Shown here: positions 9,432-64,000 of the stretch, piece after piece
Position numbering within the stretch: position 1 is the first letter of the stretch
Layout of the letters: each line of letters opens with the position of its first letter
Sequence record: PX418922.1
Source of the DNA: a phage
DNA length: 64,000 bases
Direction: 5' to 3' (one strand)
Notes under the pieces: generated by a model
Seen by the model: the letters and a program-made list of their open reading frames with translations, nothing else
Told to the model about the DNA's origin: nothing
The model's database searches: none
Program-made: the position numbers and the translations under genes

Positions 9432-9977
9432 ATGATATTTACAAATTTTAAAAGATATATTCCCGAAGATCCCGAACTAAAAGAATTGGTAGAAGTAGAG
9501 AACATTCTTTTTCTTCGTTGCGATCAAGGTTACGATTGGTATGATTTACGTAGCACAGAATTCAATAACGATAAAATGAAAGTCGTTTTTGACGATCAAA
9601 ATCGTATTGTGTTTTGGAACACTGATCCTACATTACTTTGCCCTGAAGATCTTTCTATAGCACAAGTGGACTTTAATATAGACACTTTTGAGGATATTAG
9701 AAACAAGGTTCTGGATTTAGAAACTTTGACTCTTAAGGATAAAGAGTATTCCCGTGAAGAGTTGATGACACAAGCTAGTGCAAAAATTCGCTCTTTACAA
9801 GAAACAGCGGTAGCACTTATAACACCTTTACAGTATGCTAAAGATTTAGAAATGGCTACTGAAGATGAATTAGCTTATCTTAAAAATCTTCAAGTTTATG
9901 TGGTTAAACTAAACCGTGTTCCGCTTCAAAAAGACTATCCTTACACTATAGATTGGCCTACATTACCAACGGAATAA
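9432..9977 (+). CDS. tail fibre assembly / chaperone-like protein
   Basis: 181-aa acidic ORF directly downstream of fibre gene (positional inference). Confidence 0.35.
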   Translation: MIFTNFKRYIPEDPELKELVEVENILFLRCDQGYDWYDLRSTEFNNDKMKVVFDDQNRIVFWNTDPTLLCPEDLSIAQVDFNIDTFEDIRNKVLDLETLTLKDKEYSREELMTQASAKIRSLQETAVALITPLQYAKDLEMATEDELAYLKNLQVYVVKLNRVPLQKDYPYTIDWPTLPTE

Positions 9978-57422: not shown

Positions 57423-58409
57423 ATGGCAGCACCAAAATCATGGGAACAATATAAAGAAGAGTGTCAACCAATAGCAGAGAGTAAGCAAATCCAAATCTTA
57501 GGATGGACGGGAGAATGGAAAGGGGTTAATACAAAACTTGATTTGTTGTGTCATTGTGGTTATAAATGGGATACTACAAGTATTAACAATTTTAAACGTG
57601 GTAGTGGTTGTCCTTTATGTGGATATGAGAATACAAGGAAGGCACAAACAATATCCGACGATCAACATATTGCAGATTTCTTTTCTACAGGGAAGTTTAA
57701 GGAAGGCACTATTTTCACCAATACGGGGGAACGTAAAGGGTGTGATCCAGTATGGATGATTCAGTGTCCTGTTTGTTCTCATGATGAATATGTTAAAGCT
57801 GGACTATGTGATGGTAAGTTTTATATGACGCGTGGCAATCTTAAATATGGATACTTACCCTGCCGTTGCTCTGCATCTTATAGGTATACAGCGGAACAGA
57901 TTACGTATAAAGTAAGAAAGAAAATAGAAAAGAAAGGGTATGTTTGGATAGGATGGATTACCAAACCATCTTCTATAGGTAAGTTTAAATATATATGTAA
58001 GAGTCATGGGGAACAAAAAGGAACTGCAAACAACCTTTTAAACATAGGACAAGGTTGTCCGCAGTGTGCTAACAAAAATCAACAACAAGCCTACATTAAT
58101 TATATTTACGATGAGCAAGATATTATCTGTGCACTGAAGTTTGGTATTGCTAATAATAGTAATCGCCGTATGAAAGAACAAAATAGTCATAATGTGTTCA
58201 CTATGAAACAACACCAAGTGTGGCACTTCCCTACTGTTAAGCAATGCCAAAACGCAGAGAAATATTGCAAGAAGGTGTTAAACACGGAAGCAGTGAGCAA
58301 ATATTCTATGCAAGATGGCTACACAGAAACAGTGGAGCTATCTTGCATGGCATCCGTACAGAATATTTATAAACTTTATGGTGGAACATTACAGGAGGAA
58401 ACATGTTAG
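57423..58409 (+). CDS. Zn-ribbon repeat protein
   Basis: 328-aa ORF with at least five CxxC/CxC pairs ('CHCGY','CPLCGY','CPVCSH','CPQCAN'). Confidence 0.45.
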   Translation: MAAPKSWEQYKEECQPIAESKQIQILGWTGEWKGVNTKLDLLCHCGYKWDTTSINNFKRGSGCPLCGYENTRKAQTISDDQHIADFFSTGKFKEGTIFTNTGERKGCDPVWMIQCPVCSHDEYVKAGLCDGKFYMTRGNLKYGYLPCRCSASYRYTAEQITYKVRKKIEKKGYVWIGWITKPSSIGKFKYICKSHGEQKGTANNLLNIGQGCPQCANKNQQQAYINYIYDEQDIICALKFGIANNSNRRMKEQNSHNVFTMKQHQVWHFPTVKQCQNAEKYCKKVLNTEAVSKYSMQDGYTETVELSCMASVQNIYKLYGGTLQEETC

Positions 58410-58781: not shown

Positions 58782-58970
58782 ATGGCACGTTTAGCAGATA
58801 ACCCTGTATTCTACCCCGTTCTTGATCTTTATGATGAATTGACATATGTTGTGGAGCGGTATAATTACAATGAAGACCTCTTGGAGACAAACCTTAAAGT
58901 AGTTCTGATGAAAGCCTATCAGCAAGGGCAACGTGAAATTTTGGAGAGTATGAAAAATGCGAATAACTGA
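58782..58970 (+). CDS. hypothetical small protein
   Basis: start moved to ATG after RBS 'aaaggagaaact' (track 58746). Confidence 0.4.
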   Translation: MARLADNPVFYPVLDLYDELTYVVERYNYNEDLLETNLKVVLMKAYQQGQREILESMKNANN

Positions 58971-59499
58971 TGATTATGTATTCTTCTTTTCACATAAAGA
59001 TGTTTTTAGTAATTGGTATATTGCACCCTTTACAGAAACCGAACCAGGTTACAATCAGACATTTAATTGTGTCGAACAATACATGATGTGGCGTAAAGCT
59101 TTGCTTTTTAATGACCACAACACTGCACAGGCTATTCTGACTCATAGTTTGATACGGAAAGATGAGAAGATCCAAGCTTATTACAAACGTATGGGTAAGG
59201 CAGTGTCGGATTTTGATAACAACGTATGGGAAGAGAACCGTGAGCGTATTGTTATGCGAGGTTTATGCTTGAAATATGTACAGAATCCAGATTTGTATGC
59301 AGACTTACACCTTTACCAATACAAAACGTTTGTTGAAGCAAGCCCCTACGATAAGGTTTACGGAATTGGAATGGGGATGTATGAACCAGGGGTGCTAAAC
59401 CCTGCCACCTGGAAAGGGCAGAATCTTTTAGGTAAATATCATAATAAACTGATCGAAATACTTTTCCCAGACAAAATACCGCAAAGACGATATTTGTGA
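58957..59499 (+). CDS. NADAR (YbiA-like) domain protein
   Basis: 'FFFSHKDVFSNWY...FNCVEQYMMWRKALLF...EASPYDKVYGIGMG' matches NADAR/DUF1768 signature pattern. Confidence 0.5.
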   Translation: MRITDDYVFFFSHKDVFSNWYIAPFTETEPGYNQTFNCVEQYMMWRKALLFNDHNTAQAILTHSLIRKDEKIQAYYKRMGKAVSDFDNNVWEENRERIVMRGLCLKYVQNPDLYADLHLYQYKTFVEASPYDKVYGIGMGMYEPGVLNPATWKGQNLLGKYHNKLIEILFPDKIPQRRYL

Positions 59500-59554
59500 T
59501 ATTTTAACTTTTTTCATTTTTAGAACAAAGGTGTCACTTTGTAGCACAGAAATA

Positions 59555-59590
59555 AGGCTCCTACAGCACCGTAGAGAGCCTGTTATTTTG
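59555..59590 (+). terminator. candidate terminator hairpin after NADAR gene
   Basis: 'aggctcctacagcaccgtagagagcct' stem-loop followed by 'gttattttg'. Confidence 0.45.
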
Positions 59591-59721
59591 TCCTATACAA
59601 ACCCTTGTCTTTTTCAGTTTGCATCACTAGGATTCGATCTAAGTAGGTTCCTGAAGGTCTACCAATAAGATTAAAGGTTATCTCAAATTACCACTACCTG
59701 TTATCTCAAAAATTCCTCAAA

Positions 59722-59919
59722 TTATTTAAACTTTTTAAGAATTTACAAAAGTGAAAGTTGAAAACCAAAATTTAAAGTTTAGGAAAATTATCTTAAAATG
59801 TCAGATACAAAACAAAACTCAAAAGTCAAGGAAAATTTTAAAAATTTTGCGCGCCCACAGTATTTAAAGTTTTTTTGCTTTTACAAAAATGAAAGTACAA
59901 AAGCAAAATTTAAAGTTTA
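59722..59919. repeat. two ~60-bp AT-rich direct repeats (iteron-like)
   Basis: 'tttacaaaagtgaaagttgaaaaccaaaatttaaagttta' (59742-59781) vs 'tttacaaaaatgaaagtacaaaagcaaaatttaaagttta' (59880-59919), each preceded by 'atttaaa[c/g]ttttt'. Confidence 0.6.
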
Positions 59920-59940
59920 CAAAAATTTATGCAGATGGGA

Positions 59941-59957
59941 ATGAGAAGAGTTCTCAT
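59941..59957. promoter_or_regulatory. perfect 7-bp inverted repeat
   Basis: 'atgagaagagttctcat'. Confidence 0.4.
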
Positions 59958-59962
59958 GTGGA

Positions 59963-59988
59963 AATGCAAATGATAATGATTCGCATTT
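59963..59988. promoter_or_regulatory. Fur-box-like palindrome 1
   Basis: 'aaatgcaaatgataatgattcgcattt' contains GATAATGAT matching first half of Fur consensus GATAATGATAATCATTATC. Confidence 0.4.
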
Positions 59989-60024
59989 AGGTTTATAAAT
60001 GAGATTGATTCTTATTTAATAAAG

Positions 60025-60047
60025 TAAATGATAATCATTCTCATTTA
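60025..60047. promoter_or_regulatory. Fur-box-like palindrome 2
   Basis: 'taaatgataatcattctcattta' matches Fur consensus at about 16/19 positions and is near-palindromic. Confidence 0.5.
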
Positions 60048-60304
60048 GAGAATGACGCGCAGGGGCGGTGTTTGTCTCGCGCTCCCGTGTCCCCTCGCCA
60101 TGTACTAAGAATAACAGATCCAGCCAGGAAAGCAAGCGATTATTTTATCTTTACATTTCTTTACAAATATATAGCGCCCAGCCTACCGGCGATCAACCTT
60201 CCAACCAGTGCCCCTGGTATGTTAGCCCCGCCTTTACGCCGTGGGGTGGCGCTTCCTCTTCTGTATGTAAAACAGTATAAGCCCTATCCCTGGGCTTGTC
60301 AAGA

Positions 60305-60571
60305 TTATTTTTTGTTTTCTTGCCAGGTCAGGACACCTAGCCAAAAATGAATATCACCTTTTCCCCAATGTGGTATATTGCTTTCTTTCCCACCTTCACG
60401 CGCCCAGGTAAAACCGCCCGTGTAACTTTGTAATTGATAACTATCCTCGACCTTATAATCTGATAGGTTGAGAACGGTTTCAACCTTTAAGCCCGTTGCG
60501 CTTGCTACCTGGTGCACCGTGCCGCCTTGCCAGCCCAATGAGTGCATAAGATGTAATGTAGTATTTGTCAT
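60305..60571 (-). CDS. hypothetical protein in GC-richer block
   Basis: 88-aa ORF; local composition visibly GC-richer than flanking phage DNA. Confidence 0.3.
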   Translation of the reverse strand: MTNTTLHLMHSLGWQGGTVHQVASATGLKVETVLNLSDYKVEDSYQLQSYTGGFTWAREGGKESNIPHWGKGDIHFWLGVLTWQENKK

Positions 60572-60680
60572 GGTGTCGCCCTTTCTTTGTTGTGCGCCCT
60601 GGTTGGCGCGGTAGAAAGATGATAGCCCTTTCCTTTATATATAGCAAGCAAAAAGAAAATAAAAAAGATTGAAAAAGTGG

Positions 60681-60738
60681 TTGACGTTCGCCAGGTGGCG
60701 GCATAATATTTACCACGTAGCGCGGCAATGGTGCCGCT
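60681..60738 (+). promoter_or_regulatory. early-type promoter P1 with 5' hairpin
   Basis: TTGACG-17nt-TAATAT then 'gcggcaatggtgccgc' hairpin. Confidence 0.6.
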
Positions 60739-60758
60739 CACTATTTGGAGTTAAGATC

Positions 60759-60956
60759 ATGGCAACATTGCACATTGTGGCGAAAGCTGGACAAATCAAC
60801 GTAATAGTAAACGGTTTTACTGAGTTCAGTCATCCCCAGGATGATCATGAAACGGTTTTATCTTTCATTGATTCCCTGTTAGAAATGGGAGTCATTACAG
60901 AAGACCAGCACGCTACAAAATGCAAGCGCGTTAATCAAATTGCAGGGATAGAATAA
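60759..60956 (+). CDS. hypothetical small early protein
   Basis: 65-aa ORF starting 'MATLHIV' after RBS 'ggag' (track start 60669 lies upstream of promoter). Confidence 0.5.
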   Translation: MATLHIVAKAGQINVIVNGFTEFSHPQDDHETVLSFIDSLLEMGVITEDQHATKCKRVNQIAGIE

Positions 60957-60962
60957 AAAGTA

Positions 60963-61017
60963 TTGACAACAAACAACAACCTGATAAGATGTATCACATA
61001 GGGGCGACAAGCGCCCC
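60963..61017 (+). promoter_or_regulatory. early-type promoter P2 with 5' hairpin
   Basis: TTGACA-16nt-TAAGAT 'gtatcacata' then 'ggggcgacaagcgcccc' hairpin. Confidence 0.6.
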
Positions 61018-61041
61018 GCCTAACAGAAGAGAGAAATCATC

Positions 61042-61314
61042 ATGGCATCATATAGCGCAACAATGATCGTAACTGGCACCACTGGTAAACCTATGAGCGG
61101 TGGCGGATCTTTCGCTAATATTAATATTGACGGGCGCTTATCCCTGGACGCAGCGATCACCGTGGCGCGGGAAACATTTAAGAAAGAATGTAAATTCAAT
61201 AAACAAGATTATCTCGGTTTCGCTATTGAAAAAACCGCGCGCTTTGTTGATTATAAAAGCCCGAAAATGGTTGATACTACACTGAAAGCGCAAGATGTAG
61301 CCTTTTTGCTTTAA
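61042..61314 (+). CDS. hypothetical small early protein
   Basis: 90-aa ORF 'MASYSATMIV...'. Confidence 0.5.
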   Translation: MASYSATMIVTGTTGKPMSGGGSFANINIDGRLSLDAAITVARETFKKECKFNKQDYLGFAIEKTARFVDYKSPKMVDTTLKAQDVAFLL

Positions 61315-61326
61315 GGCTTGACATTA

Positions 61327-61382
61327 ACGAATAATTTGTTAATATGTTACATAAAGCGGGAATAGTTCCCGCTATTTGTAAG
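61327..61382 (+). promoter_or_regulatory. early-type promoter P3 with 5' hairpin
   Basis: TTGACA-16nt-TAATAT then 'agcgggaatagttcccgct' hairpin. Confidence 0.6.
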
Positions 61383-61390
61383 GTGGTAGA

Positions 61391-61648
61391 ATGTTTTACA
61401 TCAAATTAAAAGGTCACGTGATCGCGTTCAAAGATAACGCTTTTTACAGATTAGCAAAATATGCGTTAATACATCCCCACTATGTTTATATAAGGGGGCG
61501 TGATGAAATAAATATTTTTGATCAAACAACATGCGAAAACATCGAGATCCGCAAGGTTGGCGTACGTGATTATCGTACATCTTTCTACCCTTGCAAGGAT
61601 TCAGCAAGTCTTTTTAAAGTATGCCAATTGTTGAAAAAAGGTGGTTAA
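61391..61648 (+). CDS. hypothetical small early protein
   Basis: 85-aa ORF. Confidence 0.5.
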   Translation: MFYIKLKGHVIAFKDNAFYRLAKYALIHPHYVYIRGRDEINIFDQTTCENIEIRKVGVRDYRTSFYPCKDSASLFKVCQLLKKGG

Positions 61649-61649
61649 T

Positions 61650-62207
61650 ATGGGCCGCGAATATGTGATCCAGTCTTGGGTAAAACATGAAGCAGATGAT
61701 CCGCGCATCATTCCCGATCATCTTATCGATGAATCCACGGGATATAGCGGTGAGCAAATAGGTAACAGATTAGCACGTAGTAACGGCAACGTAAAAGCGC
61801 GTTATGTGCGCCCTGGCTGGCTGGCAAATGGTAACGCTGATTTATCCAGTGCGGAAGATGCGAGCGACGGCGCGAAAGATAATCCTTTGTACAAAATTGA
61901 TCCGGCTTTTCGTGTCCTGGATGAATACCCCAGCAAGATAGCGGCGCTCGATCAGGCCCTGGAAAGTAAGCGCATCACCTGGACCGCTTACAACATGGCA
62001 AAAAACGTACTTGATGGTAAATTGATTCAAGCTGAAAGAAAATTAGCCAAAATTGCAGCCATAACCCAGGAGGAAGACGAGGAGACAACGGAAGAGGAAG
62101 AGTACGAAGAGATCCCGCCGTTGTTGTGTGTTGATGCTTTCCCTGATTATCAGCCGACAGAGGAAGAAAAAAGGATCGCACTAGAAAACTTTGAAAATAG
62201 TCTTTGA
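61650..62207 (+). CDS. hypothetical early protein with acidic C-terminal region
   Basis: start at ATG after RBS 'aaaggtgg' (track 61641); 'EEDEETTEEEEYEE' tract. Confidence 0.5.
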   Translation: MGREYVIQSWVKHEADDPRIIPDHLIDESTGYSGEQIGNRLARSNGNVKARYVRPGWLANGNADLSSAEDASDGAKDNPLYKIDPAFRVLDEYPSKIAALDQALESKRITWTAYNMAKNVLDGKLIQAERKLAKIAAITQEEDEETTEEEEYEEIPPLLCVDAFPDYQPTEEEKRIALENFENSL

Positions 62208-62259
62208 CATATCGCCGCCACTGGCATAATATTTACCACGTAGGGCGGCAATGGTGCCG
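62203..62259 (+). promoter_or_regulatory. early-type promoter P4 with 5' hairpin
   Basis: TTGACA-17nt-TAATAT, near-identical to P1 over ~40 bp, then 'ggcggcaatggtgccgc' hairpin. Confidence 0.6.
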
Positions 62260-62289
62260 CTCATAGTGAAATTATGCAAGAGGTTTGCA

Positions 62290-62388
62290 ATGATTAATAA
62301 AGAAAATAGCTTGACGGTTGGAACGATTAACGCTATCATTCTTGCCGTTCCATTTTGGATTGTATTAGCGGCTATTATTTTCTAAAAA
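62290..62388 (+). CDS. 32-aa hydrophobic peptide (not in supplied track)
   Basis: 'MINKENSLTVGTINAIILAVPFWIVLAAIIF' downstream of P4 with RBS 'agagg'. Confidence 0.3.
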
Positions 62389-62394
62389 ATATTC

Positions 62395-62455
62395 TTGACA
62401 ACGTTTTTTAATCTGATAAGATGTATCACATAGGGCGGCGGAATACTTCCCCGCC
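62395..62455 (+). promoter_or_regulatory. early-type promoter P5 with 5' hairpin
   Basis: TTGACA-16nt-TAAGAT 'gtatcacatagggcggcggaatacttccccgcc'. Confidence 0.6.
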
Positions 62456-62476
62456 AAAACAAAAAAGGGTAACACA

Positions 62477-62839
62477 ATGAGCAAGCAAATCAATACTATC
62501 ATGTTTAATCTGGTATCTTTCCGCGATGATATGAAAAATTTACCACGTGAAACGGTTGATATTCATGTTTCAGCTTATCGCGCCCTTATTGATATGTTAC
62601 CGCTAAAACGTGATCAACATGCCGCTAATATGATGCTTAATGCTATGCTTAAAAAGATGATTCAAACGGATCTCACCCTGGCGTATGAGTATCAAGGGCG
62701 CTTATATGCAACTTACAACAAGGCGGTACCTGGTCTGGGAAGTACCGAAGAGTTGCACGGCTTAAACCTGGATCAAAACACTTGGGATAGTATGCGCCGC
62801 GTTATGGTATGGGCCGAAAGCGGTAAAATTTACGAATAA
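62477..62839 (+). CDS. hypothetical early protein
   Basis: 120-aa ORF. Confidence 0.5.
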   Translation: MSKQINTIMFNLVSFRDDMKNLPRETVDIHVSAYRALIDMLPLKRDQHAANMMLNAMLKKMIQTDLTLAYEYQGRLYATYNKAVPGLGSTEELHGLNLDQNTWDSMRRVMVWAESGKIYE

Positions 62840-62845
62840 AAACGG

Positions 62846-62905
62846 TTGACATTGTTTAAAATTCTAGTATAGTTTACCACATAGGGCGGGAAGTGGTTTC
62901 CCGCC
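62846..62905 (+). promoter_or_regulatory. early-type promoter P6 with 5' hairpin
   Basis: TTGACA-16nt-TATAGT then 'gggcgggaagtggtttcccgcc' hairpin. Confidence 0.6.
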
Positions 62906-62927
62906 AACAATGAAAAAGGTTATCATC

Positions 62928-63293
62928 ATGGCTATTAATATTAATGTTTCCGCTTATGCTACCCTGGCTAACACGGCTAAAATTGAATTATCCAGCATTG
63001 AGGCGGTGCATATTAGCGCCCGTCGCTGGTTTCAACGGTCCTACGGTAACACATATTTTTCTTTAATGGTTGACGTTGAGATCGGCGGTAAACTGATCGA
63101 GGTGGTTAACGTTCCGTTTCAATATGGCTATGGTGATCATTTTGATACCGTCGCCCTAGAAGAGTTTAGCAAGGTTATCAACCTGGAAGGTAAAGAGTTT
63201 TCAAATTATGCCTACCTTTCCCGTTTTTGCCGTGACAATGGGATCACTGTATACAGTCATGCGAGCGATGTAAAACGTAAAAAAGATTTATAA
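62928..63293 (+). CDS. hypothetical early protein
   Basis: start placed at 'MAININ...' with RBS 'aaaaagg' (track 62910); N-terminus resembles 63713 ORF. Confidence 0.5.
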   Translation: MAININVSAYATLANTAKIELSSIEAVHISARRWFQRSYGNTYFSLMVDVEIGGKLIEVVNVPFQYGYGDHFDTVALEEFSKVINLEGKEFSNYAYLSRFCRDNGITVYSHASDVKRKKDL

Positions 63294-63299
63294 AAAGCA

Positions 63300-63358
63300 T
63301 TGACAGCACGAATAAAAAGAGTAAACTGTATTACATAGAGAGCGGGAACACTTCCCGC
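63300..63358 (+). promoter_or_regulatory. early-type promoter P7 with 5' hairpin
   Basis: TTGACA-16nt-TAAACT then 'agcgggaacacttcccgc' hairpin. Confidence 0.55.
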
Positions 63359-63382
63359 CTCACTGAAAAAGAGAGAAAAATC

Positions 63383-63622
63383 ATGGCTAAATCTAAAATG
63401 TACAACGGTCACAAAAACAAAACTCATTGGAATGTAAGCCTTTGGATTAATAACGATGAATCGTTATACCGGTTGGCCCAAGATTTTATTAACGCTAATG
63501 CTAATCGTAATGATGCGGCGCGGGATATGATGCTTTTTCTGGAACAAACTGGACAAGATAAAACGCCAGACGGTTTCAAATATAGCACTACTGCGATCCG
63601 TGCCGCGATGGTTGGAATGTAA
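63383..63622 (+). CDS. hypothetical small early protein
   Basis: 79-aa ORF. Confidence 0.5.
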   Translation: MAKSKMYNGHKNKTHWNVSLWINNDESLYRLAQDFINANANRNDAARDMMLFLEQTGQDKTPDGFKYSTTAIRAAMVGM

Positions 63623-63631
63623 TAAAAACAG

Positions 63632-63691
63632 TTGACAACGTTTAAAATTAGTGTAAGATGTATCACATAGGGCGGGAAGTGGTTTCCCGCC
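63632..63691 (+). promoter_or_regulatory. early-type promoter P8 with 5' hairpin
   Basis: TTGACA-16nt-TAAGAT then 'gggcgggaagtggtttcccgcc' hairpin (identical to P6 hairpin). Confidence 0.6.
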
Positions 63692-63712
63692 AAAACAAAG
63701 AGATTAAAGATT

Positions 63713-63940
63713 ATGGCTATCAATATTGTTCGCGTATCCGGCACCGTTGGCACTTCCCAGGTTATTGCAGTTGTAACAAACAAAAAGATTAATGATGTAT
63801 GTGAGATCTTGAATAAGTGGGCTATTGCTAATTTTGGGGAATATGCAAGCGTCGAGTACATCGAATCCTACCAGGTGCCAACCATCAGCCTAACCGATCT
63901 CAACGTTGATCGCCTGTTATGCCTGGATGAATTGATCTGA
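63713..63940 (+). CDS. hypothetical small early protein
   Basis: 75-aa ORF 'MAINIVRVSG...'. Confidence 0.5.
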   Translation: MAINIVRVSGTVGTSQVIAVVTNKKINDVCEILNKWAIANFGEYASVEYIESYQVPTISLTDLNVDRLLCLDELI

Positions 63941-63949
63941 AAAAGATTG

Positions 63950-64000
63950 TTGACACCGGAAAGAAAAAGAGTAAACTGTATTACGTAGGGCGGCAATGGT
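63950..64000 (+). promoter_or_regulatory. early-type promoter P9 (hairpin truncated by window end)
   Basis: TTGACA-16nt-TAAACT 'gtattacgtagggcggcaatggt'. Confidence 0.5.

Follow-up and report, generated by a model that had tools for sequence, protein, structure and literature searches.

The stretch of phage DNA analysed here (sequence record PX418922.1, 64 kb; hereafter the window) carries an array of four regularly phased 19-bp palindromes, located downstream of two conserved leftward promoters. By all the sequence tests available, these palindromes are Fur-type operators, resembling the sites of the host regulator Fur. The array belongs to a conserved non-coding region of about 1.1 kb, called here the hub, which lies between a plus-strand gene cluster ending at 59499 and an array of early genes starting at 60681.

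The palindrome, AATGAKAATnATTMTCATT (19 bp), is present in four copies spanning 59940-60045 and in no other place in the 64 kb. With AATGAGAATnATTCTCATT and up to 3 mismatches allowed, the copies start at 59940, 59969, 59998 and 60027, a step of exactly 29 bp. Tandem Repeats Finder also gives a period of 29 on the array. Four copies of AATGAGAATnATTCTCATT were reached in 0/100 shuffles. Relative to the consensus derived from phage copies, box 4 has no mismatch and the other three boxes have 1-3. The boxes are as follows.

59940-59958: Fur-type box 1, distal, degenerate, 18.6 bits
59969-59987: Fur-type box 2, 28.6 bits
59998-60016: Fur-type box 3, 24.1 bits
60027-60045: Fur-type box 4, proximal, 31.6 bits, found in nearly all related phages

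The original prediction had pointed to two of these palindromes, aaatgcaaatgataatgattcgcattt at 59962-59988 (given there with an offset of one base) and taaatgataatcattctcattta at 60025-60047. Both are present, within a total of four. The likeness of the second one to the Fur consensus, put at about 16/19, was also found: it matches GATAATGATAATCATTATC at 16/19 positions and is the sole such match in 64 kb, where 0.04 would be expected by chance. The 'perfect inverted repeat' atgagaagagttctcat (59941-59957) described next to them does exist; it is, however, not a separate feature but the degenerate fourth copy of the palindrome.

A Fur box is defined as a 19-bp inverted repeat fitting GATAATGATAATCATTATC, or as a 7-1-7 core TGATAATnATTATCA, and the array agrees with this definition. 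A 30-nt query containing the proximal box finds its best match at one intergenic place in 5,415 of 5,426 complete E. coli genomes. In K-12, this place is the yhhX-yhhY spacer, i.e. the ryhB promoter, and the ryhB operator AATAATAATCATTCTCATT is identical to box 4 at 18/19 positions. The ryhB site was confirmed by gel shift and scored 25.2 bits, and the 9-1-9 palindrome corresponds to the unit for a single dimer (Chen et al. 2007, PMC2189734). The comparison was also made from the phage side. A matrix was derived exclusively from 39 distinct phage copies and used to scan the enterobactin cluster of E. coli K-12 with its surroundings (45 kb). The top six matches (10-17.5 bits) are all located in the Fur-regulated divergent promoter regions fepB-entC, fepD-entS and fepA-fes. 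Besides, the core TGAGAATnATTCTCA is present in papers on Fur and on TonB-dependent receptors of other bacteria.

The phage boxes thus share with the E. coli Fur operators (ryhB, fepA-fes, fepD-entS, fepB-entC) the 19-bp 9-1-9 inverted repeat and its 7-1-7 core, and by sequence they cannot be told apart from Fur operators of high affinity. The arrangement is different. The E. coli operators contain overlapping sites offset by 6 bp, whereas each phage site is for a single dimer and stands apart from the next one, at a step of 29 bp. Moreover, the phage boxes are downstream of two promoters, do not overlap a promoter in the window and do not control a protein-coding gene. Variation within the palindrome is informative as to its nature. 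Among 58 mirror positions deviating from the consensus, only 2 are compensated, so that the half-sites vary independently, with the caveat that choosing copies at up to 3 mismatches to the consensus biases against double changes. Such uncompensated deviations argue for a protein site made of two half-sites rather than for an RNA or DNA hairpin.

A search by tblastn found no Fur homologue encoded in the 64-kb window. The same box, with the same 29-bp step, is found in three phage groups with enterobacterial hosts: T5-like, rV5-like and phAPEC8-like phages. Because these groups are otherwise different and have in common the box and enterobacterial hosts, binding by a protein of the host is the economical assumption. 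We therefore consider it likely that host Fur binds the boxes.

Outside the array, the next-best match to the phage matrix in the window is AATGAAAAAGGTTATCATC at 62909-62927 (14.1 bits), which overlaps the start codon of the gene at 62910; chance probably accounts for it, since about 1.4 matches of at least 12 bits are expected per shuffle.

Judged from nucleotide identity, the window is part of a Phapecoctavirus (phAPEC8-like) genome. With megablast, region 59400-61000 is 99% identical to Escherichia phage iGC_PHA_EC001 and 94-98% identical to phAPEC8, ESCO13, Schickermooser and other Phapecoctavirus (Stephanstirmvirinae). In annotated relatives, the counterpart of about 59500-60300 is gene-free. 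A more sensitive BLAST search showed that region 60000-60270 is about 70% identical in Justusliebigvirus (phi92) and in several genera of Vequintavirinae (CR8, GAP31, CB7, Mydo, EspYZU15, pEa56), and is partly found in rV5-like phages. By this comparison, the module occurs across Stephanstirmvirinae and Vequintavirinae. In all these relatives, it is located inside a gene-free gap of 0.9-1.2 kb; the rV5 genome paper draws this gap as a grey 'non-coding' box, without comment. The 29-bp step is also observed in CR8, CB7, Klebsiella phage phi1_175008, Mydo and phi92. A scan of IMG/VR with the palindrome returned mostly chance matches. A side observation concerns several GenBank records labelled 'Campylobacter phage' (B15, C9, D1 and others) or 'Acinetobacter phage' (ABPW7, ABPH49). 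They are 72-98% identical to this locus or to the rV5-like one and, on this basis, their host labels look doubtful.

To the right of the array, the DNA is richer in G and C, as had been noted from the sequence. Region 60060-60660 has a GC content of 47.1%, compared with a mean of 39.3% (standard deviation 2.5) for 601-bp windows, and ranks in the top 0.2%. Next to it, at 59676-59940, the GC content falls to about 24%, the lowest value of the whole window. The block was resolved by aligning 25 homologues with MAFFT. On the plus strand, the order of its elements is the proximal box, a two-stem hairpin, promoter P2, two TCTTTACA repeats, a nearly invariant element of about 80 nt and promoter P1. 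In the 25 homologues, the hexamers of both promoters are conserved while their spacers are free, and A/T tracts are found upstream of both. In nearly all homologues, the proximal box stands at a fixed distance from the P2 hairpin. Predicted transcription starts are at about 60267 (P1) and 60100 (P2). The elements are listed below.

60274-60302, minus strand: promoter P1, TTGACA-17-TATACT, 11/12 positions, top sigma-70 match of the final 18 kb of the window
60183-60264, minus strand: structured leader RNA of P1, predicted H-type pseudoknot (CGCC/GGCG + CCCC/GGGG), hairpin and invariant AUCGCCGGUAG
60148-60167: two TCTTTACA repeats in tandem, at a distance of 10 bp, immediately upstream of the -35 element of P2, nearly invariant across subfamilies
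60108-60135, minus strand: promoter P2, TTGCTT-16-TATTCT (TTGCAA-17-TATATT in most relatives), from the 25 aligned homologues
60056-60099, minus strand: two-stem GC-rich hairpin with conserved apical GAGACAAWCACC, 5' end of the P2 transcript, from single-sequence folds

The TCTTTACA repeats could be an UP-like element or an activator site; we take them to resemble OmpR-type tandem half-sites. A similar element precedes another promoter in one relative (L086; L numbers are our genome handles). Early promoters of the window do not in general have the GTAAAGA motif upstream.

This block had been proposed to be a horizontally acquired, host-derived segment. That proposal is refuted: by BLAST, the block has no match in the 5,426 E. 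coli genomes, and it is conserved in two phage subfamilies. A search of 185,579 species-representative genomes for its most conserved 29-mer gave one occurrence, located on a 4-kb contig from a metagenome-assembled genome. Among plasmids, one match was found, in a 137.6-kb E. coli record that matches over the same stretch, and with the same identity, as rV5-like phages do.

Several features of the two RNAs point to transcription of the minus strand. At 60056-60099, the outer and inner stems of the hairpin are kept with different sequences in different classes. In class II, the outer stem has G.U pairs on the minus strand, which become C.A mismatches on the plus strand, and the plus-strand fold loses the stem. 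The predicted P2 start is at the base of this hairpin, a promoter-then-hairpin layout that is also seen at the rightward early genes. The leader hairpin of P1 is kept in five unrelated sequence types, with one pair (50-72) being A-U in 9 and G-C in 9. Of 25 distinct sequences, 24 give this hairpin a greater stability on the minus strand (mean -10.1 versus -7.7 kcal/mol). Upstream of this hairpin, the sequence CGCC-A-CCCC-AC-GGCG-UAAAGGC-GGGG would form a pseudoknot. In its stem 2, 25 sequences have CCCC:GGGG and 7 have CCAA:UUGG, two pairs being changed on both sides. Stem 1 never varies, so that its pairing is putative. Because the promoters and the RNA structures are on the minus strand, we conclude that conserved transcription runs towards the boxes, then towards AT-rich repeats and a two-way terminator at 59555-59589.

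Automated folding was of limited help. RNAalifold gave no consensus structure on the MAFFT alignment of the P2 hairpin. For the P1 RNA, the program suggested a long-range helix, but FKP3 and pEa56 have it broken; this helix was rejected and replaced by the pseudoknot model, which was tested by hand. As RNAalifold missed the structures, the structural claims rest on our own pair counts and on single-sequence folds, among related sequences. We also observed that the 3' CGCCG of the leader could pair with CGGCG of the pseudoknot, giving a possible alternative, switch-like fold, all of whose bases are invariant. Searches with Rfam 15 gave no match at the gathering score in the 64 kb, chance-level matches only (E up to 10) in 59500-60720 and none in 60110-60350. 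A tRNA search found nothing. The predicted leader RNA of P1 thus appears to be a previously undescribed structured phage RNA outside Rfam. Targets in trans of the conserved hairpin loop were searched for in the window, and matches were no commoner than chance. For the purine-rich RNA stretches, a CsrA sponge and a Shine-Dalgarno or anti-Shine-Dalgarno mimic were considered and rejected, the motifs being conserved neither in FKP3 nor in the window.

HK022 put is an example of a cis-acting leader RNA located just downstream of an early phage promoter. As a lead only, leaders of this type resemble the P1 RNA in that a structured RNA of about 80 nt begins some 5 nt after a strong early promoter and has terminator-like elements downstream. 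They differ from it in having no sequence or Rfam similarity, and the fold proposed here is a predicted pseudoknot plus a hairpin.

The region that leftward transcripts would enter, on the other side of the boxes, contains the following elements.

59718-59933: AT-rich long direct repeats, iteron-like, with 72-nt units at 59718-59789 and 59856-59927 (repeat families D2-D4)
59555-59589: hairpin with T-rich tails on both strands; a rho-independent terminator is annotated at the equivalent position of ASO2A
59489-59505: two GATATTTG direct repeats at the 3' end of the NADAR-domain gene, read from the sequence

Region 59690-59940 is 24.7% GC, and the lowest 251-bp window of the 64 kb (23.9%) begins at 59676. 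No minus-strand open reading frame of at least 30 aa is found between 59548 and 60015. Repeats of about 65 bp, specific to each lineage, occupy the same slot in phi92, EspYZU15, pEa56 and UPEC06. In general, about three long repeats are found to the left of the boxes in each lineage, each lineage having its own set, and the short GATATTTG repeats are shared between lineages. This octamer is present in 2-4 copies at the matching place in Vequintavirinae and phi92. In both subfamilies, GATATTTG is at or just past the end of the last plus-strand gene (L004, L005, L006, L232, L234, L237). The hairpin at 59555-59589 is the terminator of the plus-strand cluster and the likely endpoint of leftward transcripts.

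These elements suggest a mechanism. Each palindrome would be a 9-1-9 site for one dimer of host Fur, the dimers being set 29 bp apart. P1, a strong promoter of host type, would fire leftward and produce the structured leader RNA. P2 would also fire leftward; its transcript would carry the two-stem hairpin at its 5' end and would reach the proximal Fur box about 55 nt on. In an iron-replete cell, Fur-Fe2+ bound to the array would block or gate leftward early transcription into the repeat region, and may shape a local protein-DNA structure. In an iron-starved cell, the array would be empty and transcription would read through. The function of the repeat field, possibly a replication origin or control of early transcription, would in this way become dependent on iron. 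We propose only tentatively that Fur-Fe gates leftward early transcription into the AT-rich repeats, and we hold this step with less confidence than the binding of Fur itself.

A number of observations weigh against this gating mechanism. In the usual Fur layout, the box overlaps the -35 and -10 elements of the repressed promoter, and such an overlap is not found here: the window has no acceptable promoter on the plus strand (GTAAAT ... GAGAAT), and the conserved P1 and P2 are on the opposite strand, at least about 55 nt upstream. A roadblock acting from position +55 would be atypical for Fur. The number of boxes varies from 1 to 5 among relatives. In an environmental lineage (IMG/VR contigs L250, L261, L266, L275), P2 and the leader RNA are kept while GTGATAGT/ACTAT-type repeats replace the Fur box. 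The box is therefore replaceable, and the sequences in its slot suggest that a different DNA-binding protein uses it in that lineage. In relatives, boxes are also found in the terminal repeats, far from P2-like promoters, which suggests a role beyond the gating of P1 and P2. In T5, a role through host genes is unlikely because host DNA is degraded early. Finally, the literature searched contains no transcriptomics, binding, expression or iron-response report for these phages.

One alternative is that the palindromes bind a dimeric protein encoded by the phage, a replication initiator or an early repressor, and form with the AT-rich repeats an origin resembling that of lambda, the likeness to Fur sites being coincidental. 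The lambda origin, an iteron-type one, indeed has four phased inverted-repeat sites and an AT-rich segment, and is activated by transcription. The hub similarly combines four phased inverted repeats with the GC minimum of the window, long direct repeats and strong promoters firing in. Its neighbouring repeats are specific to each lineage, and the environmental lineage has a different repeat in the same slot, both of which fit such an origin. Repeated protein sites beside an AT-rich segment are also what an iteron-type origin would show. However, the sites of the hub fit a regulator of the host rather than an initiator of the phage. No adjacent initiator gene was found, the neighbouring genes checked (encoding a NADAR-domain protein, a CapR-domain endonuclease and proteins of unknown function) giving no initiator match. 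The hub contains no DnaA or IHF consensus site, and no DnaA box TTWTNCACA is present in 59000-61000. The match to Fur sites also seems too close for coincidence, given the 18/19 identity with ryhB and the recovery of the ent and fep operators by the phage matrix. Furthermore, the box is common to T5-like, rV5-like and phAPEC8-like phages, among which no shared protein was identified (T5 A1 being the only one tested). A phage-encoded binder is, in our view, unlikely.

A second alternative comes from phage T5. In the sensitive BLAST search, the box region also matched T5-like phages. The T5 annotation (AY587007) lists 'direct repeat C copies 1-4' and 'palindromes E-I' at 9468-9637. These features are Fur-type boxes, with scores of 25.2, 31.6 and 27.5 bits and 29-bp steps. 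They are directly to the left of 'major nick 1, 7.9%' at 9661, the boundary of the first-step transfer. The latest detailed analysis of the T5 injection-stop region proposes DnaA, without mention of Fur or iron (bioRxiv 10.1101/866236). In Salmonella phage 3sent1, at least 8 copies are found in a 1.8-kb gene-free stretch beside DnaA boxes, and one further copy follows a GC hairpin, as in the window. T5 'Repeat Region 3', the candidate injection-stop region in the left terminal repeat, resembles the hub in its palindrome, its 29-bp steps and its large repeat-rich non-coding region, as well as in having a GC hairpin followed by a box. It also resembles it in its position, about 8% from a genome end and at the inner edge of the first-expressed genes, a likeness shown in relatives and not in the window itself.

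The geometry of these relatives is as follows. Schickermooser (Phapecoctavirus) has an identical 329-bp repeat at both ends, and its hub is 13.7 kb from the right end of a 151.2-kb genome (9.1%). HdK5 (Vequintavirus) has an identical 459-bp repeat at both ends, and its hub is 11.4 kb from the left end of a 139.3-kb genome (8.2%). These verified terminal repeats, 11-14 kb away, rule out that the hub is itself a genome end. The interval from the hub to the end of HdK5 contains 31 genes, all small and all on one strand. The terminal repeats of both phages contain two or three further Fur-type boxes each, one of those in HdK5 being centred 19 bp from the physical end. Between the terminal-repeat boxes and the hub of HdK5, there is no other site of at least 12 bits. 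In the two phages, the terminal-repeat boxes and the hub thus bracket an early region of about 11-14 kb.

The hub could accordingly be the counterpart of the T5 injection-stop. It would then delimit, on the inner side, a terminal early segment that is the first to enter or to act, and the boxes would belong to the cis signal. The boxes identical in type and step next to the 7.9% nick, the similar distance of the hub from verified genome ends, the small same-strand genes of HdK5 and the boxes in the terminal repeats are in favour of this idea. Against it, T5 has DnaA boxes, a 10-kb terminal repeat, nicks and A1/A2, whereas the hub has no DnaA boxes, lies outside any long terminal repeat and is found in phages with no detected relative of the DNA-transfer protein A1. 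For the latter, tblastn with T5 A1 gave 1,135 records, and none of 40 sampled rows was from Vequintavirinae or Stephanstirmvirinae; A2 was not searched for. Moreover, a cytoplasmic protein has no obvious means to halt DNA entry. We regard this counterpart role as rather improbable. The same holds for its extension, according to which the Fur-type clusters of the terminal repeat and of the hub would mark both ends of a terminal early segment of about 8-9% in rV5-like and phAPEC8-like phages, Fur being the missing host component of a shared signal for staged entry or use.

The original prediction had also raised the possibility of a Fur-titrating decoy. In such a reading, sites on replicating phage DNA would soak up Fur and derepress host iron uptake, to the benefit of the phage. 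Multicopy Fur boxes do titrate Fur in the Fur titration assay (FURTA), and several sites per genome would be multiplied by the genome copy number. The phage sites are also nearer to the consensus than the operators of the host itself, at 24-32 bits versus 10-17.5 bits in the ent/fep region, although the matrix was made from phage copies and the comparison therefore favours the phage. A decoy fits poorly with the five scanned relatives that have a single box, and would not need a fixed position beside the P2 hairpin. In addition, T5 destroys host DNA within minutes, so that host derepression cannot be the purpose in T5. We find a decoy distinctly improbable.

It had further been suggested that the site is an iron-responsive one controlling a small RNA or a moron gene. 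The first part agrees with the Fur-type operators described above, as far as sequence can tell; the second, a plus-strand product downstream, is not supported. In such a model, the boxes would repress a rightward promoter, and an iron-responsive small RNA or moron would be encoded in 60060-60320 and ended by a hairpin and a T-run. In many Vequintavirinae, the proximal box does lie between TTGAAT and CAGAAT, 18 bp apart and with an A/T tract upstream, a layout typical of a classic Fur-repressed promoter such as that of ryhB. However, the plus-strand -35 element is absent from the lineage of the window (GTAAAT). In about one third of the aligned homologues, the putative -10 element is CTGAAT or CGGAAT, without the essential A at position 2. 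The predicted hairpin and T-run (60279-60318) are present, but the stem, 60279-60297, is the spacer of the minus-strand promoter P1, which matches at 11/12 positions, and the T-run is the A-tract upstream of P1. On the plus strand, this T-run is 10 nt past the stem, and an intrinsic terminator, in which a GC-rich stem is directly followed by a U-run, is thus not found at 60279-60318. As noted above, the minus-strand form of the conserved hairpin is the more stable one in 24 of 25 sequences. As regards a protein, the two open reading frames of the block had been considered poorly supported. This is right for the plus-strand one (60068-60350), which is spurious; homologues differ by indels of 1, 4 and 5 nt, not multiples of three, and no plus-strand protein is therefore encoded. 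The minus-strand one (60305-60571) is, in contrast, a real conserved gene, phrog_19316. Because transcription runs towards the Fur boxes and not away from them, a Fur-controlled rightward small RNA or moron is unsupported, and we hold it to be highly improbable.

Lastly, a role of the palindromes at the RNA level, as hairpins that terminate the P1 and P2 transcripts or serve in their processing, is scarcely credible: 60056-60034 (minus strand) is flagged as terminator-like, with 9 pairs and a T-rich tail, but arm deviations are compensated in 2/58 cases only, the stems are A/U-rich with 3 G-C of 9 pairs, and the variable G/T at -4 and A/C at +4 combine freely.

Mydo-like, pEa56-like and L261 genomes contain a second promoter-hairpin-box unit, at a distance of about 7-9 kb from the main hub. 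It is in inverted orientation, has a more degenerate box and, in L086, is located between early genes. These units are at the following positions.

L086, 4960-5110: second inverted unit
L023, 4308-4418: second inverted unit
L246, 1171-1299: second inverted unit
L261, 4012-4130: second inverted unit

The surroundings of the hub are well defined. On its left, the plus-strand cluster ends with a NADAR-domain gene. On its right, the gene-free stretch is flanked by a single minus-strand gene of 88 aa, followed by a long run of small plus-strand genes, each with one sigma-70 promoter. The flanking features are as follows.

58957-59499, plus strand: last gene of the left cluster, NADAR domain
60305-60571, minus strand: 88-aa early gene of unassigned function, phrog_19316 (E = 9e-53), annotated in relatives
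60619-60647, minus strand: TTGCTA-17-TATCAT, promoter for the 88-aa gene, in divergent orientation to the first early promoter of the plus strand
60681-60709, plus strand: first promoter of the rightward early-gene array, TTGACG-17-TAATAT; downstream early genes have annotated promoters in ASO2A

In 60681-64000, on the plus strand, the small early genes each have a near-consensus sigma-70 promoter, a GC hairpin a few bases on and then a ribosome-binding site. The annotators of ASO2A called the hairpins at the rightward early genes 'terminators'. Two genes to the left of the NADAR-domain gene, the gene at 57423-58409 encodes a CapR homology domain and has a weak T5orf172 match (PHROG 'endonuclease'). 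Its annotated length varies among relatives, 1209 versus 1461 bp.

Fur boxes are familiar from textbooks as elements of iron genes in hosts; they are also known upstream of a few cargo genes of prophages, for example at the sit operon. In the literature searched, they are unreported in virulent phage control regions, in rV5, phi92 and phAPEC8, and in the T5 repeat region. The setting found here is new in that phased Fur-type arrays occur without a gene to control, in the main non-coding control region of virulent phages, and are conserved over two myovirus subfamilies and T5-like siphoviruses. The analysis corrects annotation in a region where spurious small open reading frames have been entered in many genome records, and defines a predicted structured phage RNA outside Rfam. 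If the terminal segment were indeed delimited as in T5, two-step infection of the T5 style would extend beyond T5-like phages. Should Fur bind, these phages would read the iron state of the host at the very start of infection, and the injection-stop repeats of T5, unexplained since the 1980s, would gain a named host partner.

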